NCBI GenBank assembly: GCA_003251635.1
Contig: QKEW01000008.1
Location: forward strand, 33,489 to 97,488
Direction: 5' to 3'
Source of the DNA: a bacterium
Lineage (GTDB): Bacteria; Patescibacteriota; Minisyncoccia; Moranbacterales; GWC2-37-73
Length of the DNA: 64,000 bases
The notes beneath the pieces were generated by a model. It worked only from the letters and a program-made list of their open reading frames with translations, had not been told where the DNA came from and did no database searches. Both the position numbers and the translations under genes were made by a program. How positions within the stretch are numbered: the stretch's first letter is position 1; each line of letters starts with the position of its first letter. This document shows, piece by piece, positions 43,831 through 48,559 of the stretch.

Positions 43831-43979
43831 GAGCTGTTTTTACGCTCAAGCTCGAACTTTTTTTGAAAAGAATTTTTAATTTTCCGCTCGGGCGGGCAAA
43901 AAGGGAAAGGGTCTGGGAAAAGGAATTTTTGCCCGCCCTCGCTTTCCGAATCCGATTTTTCCGCCGCCGCCGAATTTCG
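43831..43979. repeat. Inverted repeat IR1, left copy (about 149 bp, GC-rich, with an internal 13-bp palindrome)
   Basis: Its reverse complement matches 46707..46854 with one mismatch. Contains GGGCGGGCAAAAA...TTTTTGCCCGCCC. Confidence 0.85.
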
Positions 43980-44018
43980 TGCCAATTTCATTGGCGCGCC
44001 GATCTTATTTTATTAAAA

Positions 44019-44447
44019 CTAATCCAAAAAGTTAGTTCCGGTTTTAATTGCAAAAGATGTTAAGAATAAAAGACCGCCAAAAAAGCATACTTTTGAAAAA
44101 GTACCGCACCATGAAAAAATCAGCTGTTTTCTACTCATTTTTTTCTCTAATAAATTTTTTGGGTCAGGTTTACCAAGATACCGTATCGGATCAAGATGAA
44201 TATATTCCATATGAAATTCATTTCTAATTATAGAGCTTAGCAAAGTCAGTAAAAAATAAATCCAAGAGGTAATCAATATCCATTCATTTGAAATTATTTT
44301 TTCTTGTAAATCAACACTTTTTAAATATCCTAGATAAGTAATACTAAGAACCACAGCCCCACCACTCAAATAAGCAAGATTGTTATAGAAACCAATAAAG
44401 TTTTTCATGCTGTCTCTTAGCTCTTTTCTAATTTCGTGCTGATCCAT
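44019..44447 (-). CDS. Membrane protein (142 aa), cassette gene
   Basis: Multiple TM helices. Lies inside the IR1-bracketed segment. Confidence 0.45.
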   Translation of the reverse strand: MDQHEIRKELRDSMKNFIGFYNNLAYLSGGAVVLSITYLGYLKSVDLQEKIISNEWILITSWIYFLLTLLSSIIRNEFHMEYIHLDPIRYLGKPDPKNLLEKKMSRKQLIFSWCGTFSKVCFFGGLLFLTSFAIKTGTNFLD

Positions 44448-44502
44448 AGTTTTTTATTGATTATTTCTGATATTTTTTCCCCATCATCTCCATATATAAA
44501 AG

Positions 44503-45165
44503 TCACTCTTTAATAATCATCCATTTTTTCTTTTCATCGCCATACATCACAAAATATATCATCCGTTGTATAACACCAAAATAAATTGGAAATAGGATGA
44601 ACCAACTAAAAAATGACACTATCCAACCCACAATCGTAATTAACCTATGCGAAATATGATCATGTCTCACTTTAGGATAAATTAATCTCCACGCCATAGA
44701 AATAAACTCTTTAAATCCAGTTTTATTCATTGACTCTCTGTTTTTTGCTTTCCGTATTAAAATTATTAACCGCACTATATCAAAAAATATTCCAAAAAAA
44801 ACAAATGTAATGACTACGCCCCATATAGGGAAAAAATACAAAAATGGCACTCCCACAATAATCCACAAGATTGCAACTCCAAAAAATAAAGATATCAAAT
44901 TGCTATCAAATCTAAACTCATGGGCATCAAGTGCTGCAAGTTTTTTGATATTTTTTATTATCCAATAACCAATCAAACTCAATGACACTCCAGCAAAAAG
45001 AATCCAAATTAAAATATCTGTAAATTTTGAATCTCCTTTTAGAATAACAAAATAAAAAACAAGTGAGAGAATAGTAATTCCAACGCCTACTATAAACGCT
45101 GAATTTGCAATAAACTGCATGCGAGAATACATTTTTTGAATTCTTTCATTAAACATATGTTTCAT
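44503..45165 (-). CDS. Polytopic membrane protein (220 aa), cassette gene
   Basis: Five to six TM helices. No catalytic motif recognised. Confidence 0.45.
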   Translation of the reverse strand: MKHMFNERIQKMYSRMQFIANSAFIVGVGITILSLVFYFVILKGDSKFTDILIWILFAGVSLSLIGYWIIKNIKKLAALDAHEFRFDSNLISLFFGVAILWIIVGVPFLYFFPIWGVVITFVFFGIFFDIVRLIILIRKAKNRESMNKTGFKEFISMAWRLIYPKVRHDHISHRLITIVGWIVSFFSWFILFPIYFGVIQRMIYFVMYGDEKKKWMIIKE

Positions 45166-45190
45166 TAAAAATTTTAATAAATACTAATTG

Positions 45191-46327: not shown

Positions 46328-46525
46328 TTATTTAATTAATTCATCAACGCTAACCTCGAGCGCTTTAGAAATTTTCTTAAGCGTATCAAGTGTTGGATTC
46401 TGATTTTTTCCAGCTTCAATCTTGATAATTGTGTTATTGGCAACATCAGCCAATCTCGCCAATTTTTCTTGTGATAATCCCTTTGATTCCCGTAATTTTC
46501 GGAGTGTTTTTTGAATATTTGACAT
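46328..46525 (-). CDS. XRE-family helix-turn-helix transcriptional regulator
   Basis: LRESKGLSQEKLARLADVANNTIIKIEAGKNQNPTLDTLKKISKALEVSVDELI is a Cro/C1-type HTH. Confidence 0.8.
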   Translation of the reverse strand: MSNIQKTLRKLRESKGLSQEKLARLADVANNTIIKIEAGKNQNPTLDTLKKISKALEVSVDELIK

Positions 46526-46706
46526 ACTTATATTGTAGTAGTAGAATTATAGTATTAGTGCTACTTCCTTTCAACTACTTTGATGCTACACCAAAAATCA
46601 AAAATAGTAAACACGAACGGGAGTTATTTTGTGTTGTGTGCGCACGGGTGGGAGGGGCAAACACAACCACCTTTTTCTTGGCGGCGCTTTTCGCAAAGCG
46701 AAAAAC

Positions 46707-46854
46707 GAAATTCGGCGGCGGCGGAAAAATTGGATTCGGAAAGCGAGGGCGGGCAAAAATTCCTTTTCCCAGACCCTTTCCCTTTTTGCCCGCCCGAGCG
46801 GAAAATTAAAAATTCTTTTCAAAAAAAGTTCGAGCTTGAGCGTAAAAACAGCTC
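46707..46854. repeat. Inverted repeat IR1, right copy
   Basis: Reverse complement of 43831..43979 with one mismatch. Confidence 0.85.
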
Positions 46855-46942
46855 CAGACAGAAAATTGCGATTTCGAAAGCGCCAGCGCCCACTCTTTTT
46901 GCGGTTGAAAGCTGGCGTTTTTGTTTTGGAGAGTCCAGTTCA
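46851..46942. repeat. Inverted repeat IR2, left copy (about 91 bp); it abuts IR1-right
   Basis: Its reverse complement is identical to 48463..48553. Contains a CGCCAGC...GCTGGCG stem plus T-run. Confidence 0.85.
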
Positions 46943-47083
46943 TTTGAGCGAAGCTCAAAGTTGAATAAAATTCAACAGCCGATTTTTTGCCTTTTCGCCA
47001 AAGGCGAAAATTCCAAATTTGGAGAATAAAAGAAAGCGCCAATTTTTTGCCCAAAAGCGATTTCAATAATCAAAAAAAACAAT

Positions 47084-48559
47084 ATGAATCAAACCAAAAA
47101 GTTTTTTCTCTATGCCAGAAAATCAACGGATGAAGCGGAAAGGCAAGTTTTGTCCATTGAAGCGCAACTGACCGAAGTTCGGGAATTTGCGCAGAAGGAA
47201 GGAGTTTTCATTGCGCGGGAATTTGTGGAAACAAAGTCCGCCAAAAAGCCAGGGCGGGATGTTTTTGAAAAAATGATTTCTGGCGTTGAGAAAGGCGAAG
47301 CCATGGGAATTTTAGCGTGGCATCCTGATAGATTAGCAAGAAATGCGATTGACGCTGGAAAAATAATAAATTTATTGGATATAGGAAAATTGGAAACGCT
47401 AAAATTCCCGACTTTTTGGTTTGATAAAACTCCACAAGGACTTTTCATGCTCTCTATCGCTTTTGGGCAATCCAAATACTATATTGATAATCTTTCAGAG
47501 AATATCAAACGAGGATTGCGCCAGAAGCTCCGAAATGGCGTCTATCCTGGATTTGCTCCCATTGGATATACAAATGAGCTTCGCAATCATACAATCATCA
47601 AAGACCCCGAGAATTGGCAGCTTGTGGCCAAACTTTTTGAAGAATACGCGACTGGCAAATATACCTTGGAGCAAATCCAAAAATTGGCGCTTTCTTTGGG
47701 CTTGATGAGCCGACGATCAAAAAAGACTTTGTCACTTTCAAGAATCCAAAGAATGTTGAGTAATCCTTTCTATTACGGATTGTTCCAATTCAAAAATGAA
47801 ATTTACGAAGGTAATCACGAGCCAATAATTTCCAAGCAACTTTTTGAAAAAGTGCAACGGATAATGGCGGATCGCGGAAAACCAAGAAAAGAAAAACCAA
47901 ACTATGGCTTTGGATTTCTGGGAATTTTCAAATGCGGAGAATGCGGACGATCCATCACTGCTGAACAGCACATCAAGAAAAGCGGTTTGGTTTTTCGCCA
48001 TTACCGTTGCACCAAAAAGAATGTTGATTGCTCACAAAAATATGTGAGCGAAAAAGACTTGCATTTGCAAATCAATCAGATTTTTCAAAAAGTTGCTTTG
48101 CCTCCTGAATGGCTGTCACCGATTTTAGCTAAACTGGACGAGGAAGAAAAAGAGGTTTCCCAAAAATCCCGCTCTTTCGCCCAAAATATGGAAAAGGAAA
48201 TTTCGGAAATTGAAAACAAAGTTTCACGACTTTTGGATATGCAGTTGGAAAATGAAATAACCCTGGCAGAATACAAAGAGAAAAAAGAAAAACTTCTGAA
48301 TCAAAAAACAGATTTAAAGCAGAAACTTTCGGATTTTGGGCGAAAAGGAAATTATTGGCTCGAACCGATGAGAAATTTCATTTTGTCGGCTCATCAAGCC
48401 AATTCCTTAATACATTCTGAAAATTTGGAAGAGAAGCGAAGCTTCTTGCAAAAAATCGGCTCGAACTGGACTCTCCAAAACAAAAACGCCAGCTTTCAAC
48501 CGCAAAAAGAGTGGGCGCTGGCGCTTTCGAAATCGCAATTTTCTGTCTGGAGCGGGTAA
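47084..48559 (+). CDS. Large serine recombinase (resolvase/invertase catalytic domain, recombinase domain, zinc ribbon)
   Basis: The N-terminal LYARKSTDEAERQVLSIEAQ contains the catalytic Ser. C-terminal CGECGRS...HYRC zinc ribbon and a coiled coil. The last about 30 codons lie inside IR2-right. Confidence 0.8.
   Translation: MNQTKKFFLYARKSTDEAERQVLSIEAQLTEVREFAQKEGVFIAREFVETKSAKKPGRDVFEKMISGVEKGEAMGILAWHPDRLARNAIDAGKIINLLDIGKLETLKFPTFWFDKTPQGLFMLSIAFGQSKYYIDNLSENIKRGLRQKLRNGVYPGFAPIGYTNELRNHTIIKDPENWQLVAKLFEEYATGKYTLEQIQKLALSLGLMSRRSKKTLSLSRIQRMLSNPFYYGLFQFKNEIYEGNHEPIISKQLFEKVQRIMADRGKPRKEKPNYGFGFLGIFKCGECGRSITAEQHIKKSGLVFRHYRCTKKNVDCSQKYVSEKDLHLQINQIFQKVALPPEWLSPILAKLDEEEKEVSQKSRSFAQNMEKEISEIENKVSRLLDMQLENEITLAEYKEKKEKLLNQKTDLKQKLSDFGRKGNYWLEPMRNFILSAHQANSLIHSENLEEKRSFLQKIGSNWTLQNKNASFQPQKEWALALSKSQFSVWSG
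48463..48553. repeat. Inverted repeat IR2, right copy; it ends at the 3' end of tRNA-Gly
   Basis: Reverse complement of 46851..46942 (perfect). Confidence 0.85.

Follow-up and report, generated by a model that had tools for sequence, protein, structure and literature searches.

A probable mobile island at a patescibacterial tRNA-Gly gene, with a serine integrase gene that spans its own attachment site and a long inverted duplicate of that site

Introduction

Serine integrases are important tools of genome engineering, and the control of integration and excision where no directionality factor is known is still a question. Staphylococcal cassette chromosome (SCC) elements are islands placed by a large serine recombinase (LSR) at the 3' end of a conserved gene, where they form tandem arrays, and in Tn4451 the circle junction affects expression of the recombinase. 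The 2-micron plasmid carries its FLP/FRT system in 599-bp inverted repeats, and the isomers of herpes simplex virus 1 (HSV-1) and the inverted repeats of chloroplasts are similar. In 2013 Broussard and colleagues reportedly described the mycobacteriophages BPs and Brujita, in which attP is said to lie in a coding region so that integration alters the encoded C-terminus and its behaviour. Restriction-modification (R-M) units flanked by long inverted repeats have also been described (Furuta, Abe and Kobayashi 2010, PMC2853133), and the extreme C-terminal 'toggle' of the SPbeta integrase SprA is summarised in PMC11722253 (its ref. 49, Abe et al. 2021) as influencing recombination and directionality. 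Here we analyse a 64,000-nt stretch (the window) of contig QKEW01000008.1 (assembly GCA_003251635.1, positions 33,489 to 97,488, forward strand) from a member of the Patescibacteriota (Moranbacterales, GWC2-37-73). At positions 43831-48553 of the window, long inverted repeats surround a small cassette and an LSR gene; a preliminary description made from the sequence alone saw two abutting repeat sets here, and considered an invertible switch or a new mobile unit bounded by terminal inverted repeats (TIRs).

Results

A repeat search of positions 42000-50500 returned two pairs of inverted repeats far above chance, the runner-up in this 8.5-kb region being 38 nt long at 74% identity. The arms of the first pair, IR1 (43831-43980 and 46705-46854), are 150 nt long and complementary at 149 of 150 positions (99%); those of the second, IR2 (46851-46941 and 48463-48553), are complementary over all 91 nt (100%). 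IR1-right and IR2-left overlap by the four nucleotides GCTC at 46851-46854, and the repeats are GC-rich (IR1 47%, IR2 49%; element 35%, window 38%). Length, contiguity and base composition are in keeping with the preliminary description; the division into two separate sets is not. The sequence GAGC stands at both outer ends (43831-43834 and 48550-48553), and its complement GCTC at the inner junction. When 43831-48553 is closed into a virtual circle of 4719 bp with one GAGC removed, IR2-right (arm B') runs into IR1-left (arm A), and the resulting 237-nt junction B'/A, read in reverse complement, matches the inner block A'B (46705-46941, minus strand) at 236 of 237 positions. The repeats are therefore a single 237-bp inverted duplication, one copy of which was cut mid-way by integration, and the map shows two abutting sets because integration split one attP copy and left the other intact.

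The segment 43831-48553 is probably an integrated mobile island of 4.7 kb, inserted by the LSR at the 3' end of a tRNA gene through a canonical attP x attB reaction. The direct repeat GAGC is found at both ends, and one end lies at the 3' end of an intact tRNA-Gly(GCC) gene (minus strand, 48548/48551-48622 by ARAGORN and Rfam), which provides the specific half of attB. IR2-right had been said to end exactly at this tRNA 3' end; with the tRNA placed by these two programs, the arm ends 6 nt inside it. Several features of the arrangement are strongly supported: the circular form has one pair of 237-bp inverted repeats with attP central in each, dividing the circle into a cargo segment of 2.7 kb and an integrase segment of 1.5 kb; the left end is attL (host flank/A) and the right end attR (B'/tRNA); the block A'B, with its core GCTC, is a second complete attP, inverted, between cargo and integrase; and the crossover took place in the attP copy into which the 3' end of the integrase gene reaches. 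Arm A (plus strand) is accordingly the P' half of the split attP together with a downstream module, and arm B' (plus strand, 91/91 complementary to 46851-46941) is the P half. The two termini A and B' are unrelated except for the half-site motif described below, A pairing with the inner A' and B' with the inner B. The element is thus not TIR-bounded, and a TIR-bounded DNA transposon or insertion sequence was rejected; of the mobile unit proposed earlier, mobility and an LSR as its motor stand, and the terminal repeats do not.

The recombinase gene (47084-48559, plus strand) encodes 491 aa in its integrated, truncated-tail form, ending ...SVWSG. Its product matches the Resolvase (PF00239, 2.6e-21), Recombinase (PF07508) and Zn_ribbon_recom (PF13408) domains, and R12-K13-S14-T15 is near-invariant in an alignment of 54 family members. 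An AlphaFold2 (AF2) model of a natural member with a longer tail, P0011 (pLDDT 81), shows long helices at 323-421 between zinc-ribbon strands, i.e. an inserted coiled coil. The best Foldseek matches to this model are full-length integrases of the SPbeta, Bxb1, PhiC31 and LI types, with the full-length integrase-att complexes 9y66, 9dxd, 9iu2, 9rah and 4kis as top structures. The enzyme is a canonical large serine integrase by its catalytic domain, its further domains with the inserted coiled coil, and the geometry of its half-sites. Its identity to any annotated LSR in the phage and plasmid collections is below 30%, and it falls far below all curated cut-offs of the NCBIfam equivalogs XisF (98.8 vs 375 bits), CcrA/B/C (CcrB, 97 vs 900) and IS607 (25 vs 110). 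IMG/VR holds a single relative at 44% identity, which indicates that the family is not phage-associated.

The attachment sites were compared in 58 loci, with attR and the inner attP aligned on their shared core, which is 4 nt long in the window and 4-8 nt in most relatives. On the tRNA side, each listed locus with an adjacent tRNA has (A)TTCGAAC, the TPsiC loop in reverse complement, at one fixed offset, and in the window the T-loop of tRNA-Gly gives ATCGAAC at 48565-48571 on the plus strand. The motif of the A arm, T(T/C)CG(A/G)AC, stands 5 bp further from the crossover than that of the tRNA arm in all clades and in nearly every one of the 58 loci; in the window this P'-arm motif is CTCGAAC at 43851-43857 (plus strand). 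Serine integrases have their outer motif, contacted by the zinc-ribbon domain, 5 bp nearer to the centre in attB than it stands in attP (PMC11722253, citing Rutherford and Van Duyne), so the displacement seen here corresponds to the canonical attB/attP geometry of these enzymes. The P arm, which is also coding, carries a weaker TCGAA, and from the symmetrical placing of TCGAA in the two element arms, P and P', the probable central dinucleotide is GA of GAGC (43831-43832 in attL). On these alignments it is strongly supported that the enzyme reads the reverse complement of TTCGAAC, the universal tRNA TPsiC loop, as its outer half-site motif. On the opposite side of attB, the host flank shows no conservation among loci; only the tRNA half of attB appears to be read, without specific recognition of the host side, which would make switching between tRNA species and the formation of tandem arrays easy.

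The integrase gene itself runs across attP. Arm B' doubles as its last 30 codons, which places the 3' end of the gene in IR2-right as noted in the preliminary description, and carries the attR core GAGC (48550-48553). When the integrase frame is read through the crossover into the A arm, it continues into a tail that is conserved in every clade, with the motif C-[LF]-[LY]-x-x-[IVA]-R-T-[FY]-[FY]-x-x-N; examples are ...VWS-CFYAQARTFFEKNF in the window and ...WS-CLYDEVRTHFKASGG, ...WL-CLLNKIRTFFQNNPD, ...WR-CAFEKIRTDFAQNL and ...WQ-TLYEKIRTELKG in relatives. In the window the detached last 14 codons and stop (CFYAQARTFFEKNF and its stop codon) lie at 43835-43879 (plus strand), in a frame that is open across the virtual B'/A junction. 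In the integrated state these codons are thus found at the far left end of the element and, inverted, beside arm B, the inner block A'B holding a copy of the last 30 + 14 recombinase codons plus the hairpin that follows them. That inversion would swap the C-terminus of the recombinase, as claimed earlier, was reproduced with the alternative end ...SVWSCFYAQARTFFEKNF.

It is strongly supported that the tail is coding, judging from its coding-type codon-position pattern. Entropy is 1.15, 0.89 and 1.38 at codon positions 1, 2 and 3 of the anchored tail codon columns; the tail Arg is encoded by CGA, CGG, AGA or CGC and the Thr by all four ACN codons. The motif is uninterrupted in the integrase frame in 40 of the 42 non-redundant loci listed, and stops within the first 14 codons occur in 10/42 loci in this frame and in 17/42 and 21/42 in the other two. 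Both A copies retain the tail open reading frame (ORF) in all 29 distinct elements, even where the arms have drifted to 86-92%. The tail is the terminal helix (489-503) in the AF2 prediction. It is likewise strongly supported that integration exchanges a conserved C-terminal segment of ~14-20 aa, a predicted helix, for tRNA-derived residues: G and a stop in the window, the read-through 'RDSNP...' in other members. Directly after the tail stop, arm A contains a GC-rich hairpin (GGGCGGGCAAAAA ... TTTTTGCCCGCCC, 43890-43938, plus strand, from sequence and fold), with a mirror copy in A'. This hairpin may be a terminator for the transcript of the circular form; a terminator scan called no canonical terminator in arm A, and the fold of the whole arm is no better than that of shuffles.

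Homologues of the integrase number in the thousands, mostly in Patescibacteria (the candidate phyla radiation, CPR), with at least 563 confirmed relatives in species-representative genomes and at least 584 in metagenomes. We fetched 80 loci from each source and compared them with themselves, together with three obtained earlier and the window (164 loci). The search for the repeats in related genomes, which the preliminary description had called for, found an integrase-flanking pair in 148/164 (median 92 nt, median identity 99%), one arm being the last integrase codons and the other lying 25-700 nt upstream of the start codon. The recombinase reads towards the tRNA in all 148 repeat-carrying loci. 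For 109 of them the right arm has an opposite-strand tRNA 3' end no more than 15 nt away (Gly 38, Gln 36, Ser 28, Trp 4, Ala 2, Val 1), and most loci with no adjoining tRNA are cut by contig ends. An abutting second pair was found in 37 loci (105-409 nt, median identity 100%, modal overlap 4 nt), enclosing cargo of 1.2-9.1 kb. The hosts include CPR lineages, Thermodesulfovibrio, Elusimicrobia, Omnitrophota and others, as well as the isolate Schleiferia thermophila DSM 21410 (L045), whose element lies at a tRNA-Ser gene (NZ_QPJS01000004.1, ~208034-214850). Mobility is indicated by differing tRNA targets, differing cargo behind near-identical integrases, and tandem arrays. In 62 of the 164 loci the contig starts within the last 500 nt upstream of the integrase gene, the mark of short-read assemblies failing at the repeat. 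In one locus (L019, ~1938-2143) the right arm abuts sequence resembling a tRNA 3' end, and ARAGORN calls a tRNA-Gln no nearer than ~130 nt beyond, which could reflect an intron-containing or duplicated tRNA.

The arms of one locus usually share 97-100% identity; between loci with integrase genes at 86-93% identity, the A arms agree at 56-96% and the B arms at 74-98%. The A arm of the window resembles that of one relative (L006, 96%) and its B arm that of another (L001, 98%), indicating that the modules reassort at the crossover. Arm length is characteristic of each clade (91-92 nt for Gly, 124-133 nt for Gln, 78-87 nt for Ser), and in the Gly clade it is constant among integrases only ~57-91% identical to that of the window; such clade-stable lengths point to inheritance and gene conversion, not to new formation at each insertion. 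Two or more elements stand in tandem at one tRNA in L055 (= L152; 6304-16172) and L089, and in these arrays the reading frame of the distal integrase continues into the A arm of the next element, which gives this integrase a full tail again. The structure of the arrays implies that attR (B'/tRNA) can act as a target once more. The L089 array contains one integrase broken up by an IS110-family transposase, and an 817-aa ORF made of two joined integrase fragments.

The cargo operon of the window begins with the XRE-type regulator recognised in the preliminary description, a C-protein-like helix-turn-helix (HTH) gene (46328-46525, minus strand; HTH_3, 5.7e-18; PADLOC control-protein and CapH-like matches) that is divergent from the recombinase. 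An HTH_3 gene of 63-78 aa (C-protein/CapH-like), divergent from the integrase, occupies this place beside the inner repeat in 14/21 elements, and is followed by variable same-strand genes for R-M systems of types I, II and IIG, AbiEii-like and AAA_15 ATPases, a nuclease associated with pPIWI, DpnI, TdeIII and other products. The cargo thus consists mostly of R-M and other defence genes behind a C-protein-like HTH. Besides this small regulator, no conserved accompanying gene was found among the elements examined, and there is no conserved candidate gene for a recombination directionality factor (RDF). The three other cargo ORFs of the window (142, 220 and 374 aa; 44019-46315, minus strand) have no Pfam or NCBIfam family match. 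The 374-aa protein has a HELTH motif and an N-terminal hydrophobic segment, and its earlier designation as an HExxH metallopeptidase, which has this motif as its sole basis, is not confirmed.

Two back-to-back sigma-70-like promoter sites, each agreeing with the consensus at 11/12 positions and identified by consensus match only, lie at the start of the XRE gene, one (46574-46546, minus strand) directed towards the XRE gene and cargo and the other (46519-46547, plus strand) through A'B towards the recombinase. A transcript from the plus-strand site would include 91 nt perfectly complementary to the integrase mRNA's own 3' end. Just outside arm A', the 27-mer TGTGTGCGCACGGGTGGGAGGGGCAAA (46637-46663) is 96% conserved in L001 and L003. 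It adjoins both copies in L003, and in L001 only the other copy (A), where it is oppositely oriented; it may belong to a longer ancestral repeat or serve as an operator. We also considered whether the inner copy encodes a small protein on its opposite strand (86-aa ORF, 46806-47066), a reading that is not supported: the frame is open for a median of 93 nt, vs 57 and 48 nt for the controls, and is very short in several loci.

Upstream of the island, a 46-nt direct repeat (42601-42646 and 43794-43839, 74%) brackets a PhzF-like gene (42732-43577). Since the second copy takes in host flank and the initial 9 nt of arm A, the upstream copy resembles an old attL, and a 22-nt A'-like stretch lies at 42542-42563. 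An older decayed element was considered on the basis of this repeat, the A'-like remnant and a TrmB gene, and these features were treated as chance. The upstream TrmB is only 27% identical to the TrmB in the cargo of L001, the upstream region has no nucleotide homology to other elements, and the window contains no further copies of A or B. Downstream, a tRNA-Phe(GAA) gene (49418-49732, minus strand; ARAGORN with introns allowed) has a 242-nt group I intron in its anticodon loop (Rfam Intron_gpI, 86.9 bits, 49470-49710); in the syntenic locus L002 tRNA-Phe lies between tRNA-Gly and tRNA-Val and has no intron. Within 48700-49361 there is a second group I intron (48762-48977, minus strand, Rfam 83.6 bits), followed by an apparent tRNA 3' half (T arm and acceptor, ~48700-48761) for which no matching 5' half was found; an HNH-endonuclease ORF (48996-49361, plus strand) adjoins this intron on the opposite strand.

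Discussion

We tentatively propose, at somewhat less than even confidence, that loss of the C-terminal helix acts as a switch and that the inner copy serves as a spare attP and a spare gene end. Loss of the helix on integration would inactivate or re-programme the enzyme; a full-length enzyme together with attP and a tRNA half-site in one molecule would lead to continued recombination, so that the gene interrupted by the tRNA junction, the sole arrangement observed, would be an absorbing state. With a single attP the integrated state would be a dead end. The inner inverted copy would offer a way back, which would explain its conservation: a full-length gene could be rebuilt by a rare flip between B and B', mediated by RecA or by the integrase, or after excision; the circle would gain two usable attP sites; and gene conversion would keep the two copies nearly identical. 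A more specific form of this proposal, which we regard as possible but doubtful, is a self-editing integrase that needs no RDF. In the circle the enzyme would be full-length, with a helix for activity or directionality; in the integrated state it would have no such helix; the inverted spare would make the state reversible, through a flip of the integrase segment or a choice between the two attP sites, and a DNA-level toggle would take the place of an RDF.

A number of observations weigh against helix loss as a switch with the inner copy as its spare. A difference in activity between truncated and full-length enzymes is an assumption, and one attP at the 3' end of the gene would already give truncation, the need for an inner copy presupposing that the truncated enzyme cannot re-mobilise the element. 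The most conserved residues of the tail, [IV]-R-T, overlap the recognition motif, R-T being encoded by CGAAC, so part of the protein conservation is conservation of DNA. Long-tail proteins are ~6% of homologues and co-occur with short-tail forms in clusters at 90% identity. Where long-tail cases are well resolved they are tandem arrays, and others could have arisen as chimeras of assembly, perfect repeats permitting a B'/A path; the long-tail contigs (L003, L085-L089) are tandem arrays, remnants or too short to classify, and L003, whose diverged copies show that it is not a chimera, belongs to the last group. A flipped integrase segment, with an integrase-strand tRNA directly upstream of arm B, was found in 0/148 loci; there were no terminal overlaps indicating circles among 80 metagenome contigs; and the empty site (host flank plus core) had no match in metagenome collections, from which the population of the window is absent. 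The HTH-led operon has the same orientation relative to the integrase in ~14-15 of 21 elements, which argues against frequent repeat-mediated flipping, and the repeats have decayed to 75-90% in some loci, so homogenisation is not universal.

The inner attP may instead be mainly an autoregulatory operator between the divergent cargo operon and the integrase, much as res lies between tnpA and tnpR in Tn3. The integrase would bind it and so repress itself, and its near-identity to the other copy would be a by-product of gene conversion, each copy requiring a functional binding site. The inner copy does lie between divergent genes and has promoter-like sites to either side; arm B is only 25-60 nt away from the integrase start in several relatives, so that the promoter must overlap the repeat; and concerted evolution is observed. 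We nevertheless consider this unlikely, as binding needs ~50 bp and the repeat spans 77-409 bp, and the tail ORF, stop codon and hairpin, superfluous for an operator, are preserved as well. The invertible switch raised in the preliminary description, in which the integrase or RecA would flip the cargo segment (through A/A'), the integrase segment (through B/B') or both as phase variation, is permitted by the geometry. RecA could act on repeats of this length, homogenisation of the arms is seen, the long tail would return if the integrase segment flipped, and if attR serves as a target, as the tandem arrays suggest, recombination between the inner attP and attR would be an allowed inversion. 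The uniform integrase orientation in 148 loci and the largely fixed orientation of the cargo operon speak against it, as do element ends that are att junctions at tRNA genes and not parts of a resident host switch; inversion may occur at low frequency, and we judge phase variation a poor explanation of the repeats. The Hin, Gin and Cin systems likewise combine serine recombinases with inverted repeats; theirs are small enzymes with a C-terminal HTH, 26-bp sites, an enhancer and Fis, with the gene outside the invertible segment, and a segment of this type was rejected given the 491-aa LSR, repeats of 91-150 nt and a single orientation in 148 loci.

Repeats that serve a free circular stage, through amplification or isomerisation as in the 2-micron plasmid or herpes simplex virus, with integration incidental, would account for the topology: two unique segments lie between inverted repeats with the recombinase site central, and the integrated map mirrors the TRL-UL-IRL-IRS-US-TRS order of HSV. 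This is improbable, since no replication gene is present in the cargo of the window or common in the family, cargo of only 1.2 kb occurs, no circle was recovered, and only one of the two integration isomers is seen. It is very improbable that the duplicate is made anew at each integration by a replicative or fold-back process, such as a self-priming single-stranded DNA hairpin, and is not inherited. Copies are usually 98-100% identical and apparently decay in some loci, as this would predict, but arm lengths are clade-specific and stable, and serine recombinases make concerted double-strand exchanges without DNA synthesis. Next to no weight remains for an assembly artefact or for the TIR-bounded transposon, which would need mutually inverted termini, unlike those of this element. 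Chimeric assembly is known to generate perfect inverted repeats, and the 62 contigs starting just upstream of the integrase fit such a source. The preliminary description had allowed for assembly-induced duplication; the same layout in more than 140 independent assemblies from many projects, including an isolate genome, excludes it, and some diverged copies cannot be collapse artefacts.

The family is a natural case of recombination that cuts the recombinase's own gene while a mirror site is kept nearby. In CPR/Patescibacteria, a group with poorly known mobile elements, it appears to be a major carrier of R-M and other defence genes. Recognition of the near-universal T-loop explains the switching of tRNA targets and may be of practical use. 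The repeat also breaks short-read assemblies systematically, parting the cargo from the integrase and tRNA, and so hides islands in binned CPR genomes.

The layout was not found described in the full-text literature searched, which included Durrant 2022, the tycheposon preprint and Furuta 2010 but not subscription journals. Three features appear to be undescribed: attP within the integrase gene, its long inverted duplicate, and the tRNA T-loop as half-site motif. As stated in the preliminary description, the layouts of IS607, Tn4451 and Hin/Gin do not match. SCCmec/Ccr and Tn4451/TnpX are not known to carry a long inverted duplicate of the joint inside the element, or to target tRNA genes. The 2-micron plasmid, HSV-1 and chloroplast genomes likewise form a circle with two unique segments between long inverted repeats, which when linearised within one copy gives a map of abutting sets; they use another class of recombinase or none, and are replicons and not tRNA islands, and their isomers are not seen in the present family. 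In BPs and Brujita the affected gene is reportedly the repressor, the enzyme a tyrosine recombinase, and there is said to be no inverted attP duplicate. The R-M cargo is shared with the units of Furuta et al. (PMC2853133), who set aside cases with a neighbouring resolvase or integrase and did not describe a tRNA junction, a second repeat pair or a link to serine integrases. With the phage integrases PhiC31, Bxb1, A118/LI and SPbeta SprA the family shares the three-domain enzyme with its coiled-coil insert, short att sites, the 5-bp offset between attB and attP motifs and a shared core of only 4-8 nt; it differs in having attP inside its own integrase gene, a second, inverted attP within a 77-409-bp duplication, an attB of which only the tRNA half is specific, and no conserved candidate RDF gene. 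In SprA, as far as the available summary describes it, the C-terminus is always encoded and the RDF SprB acts on it, whereas in the family of the window recombination itself would remove and restore the helix.

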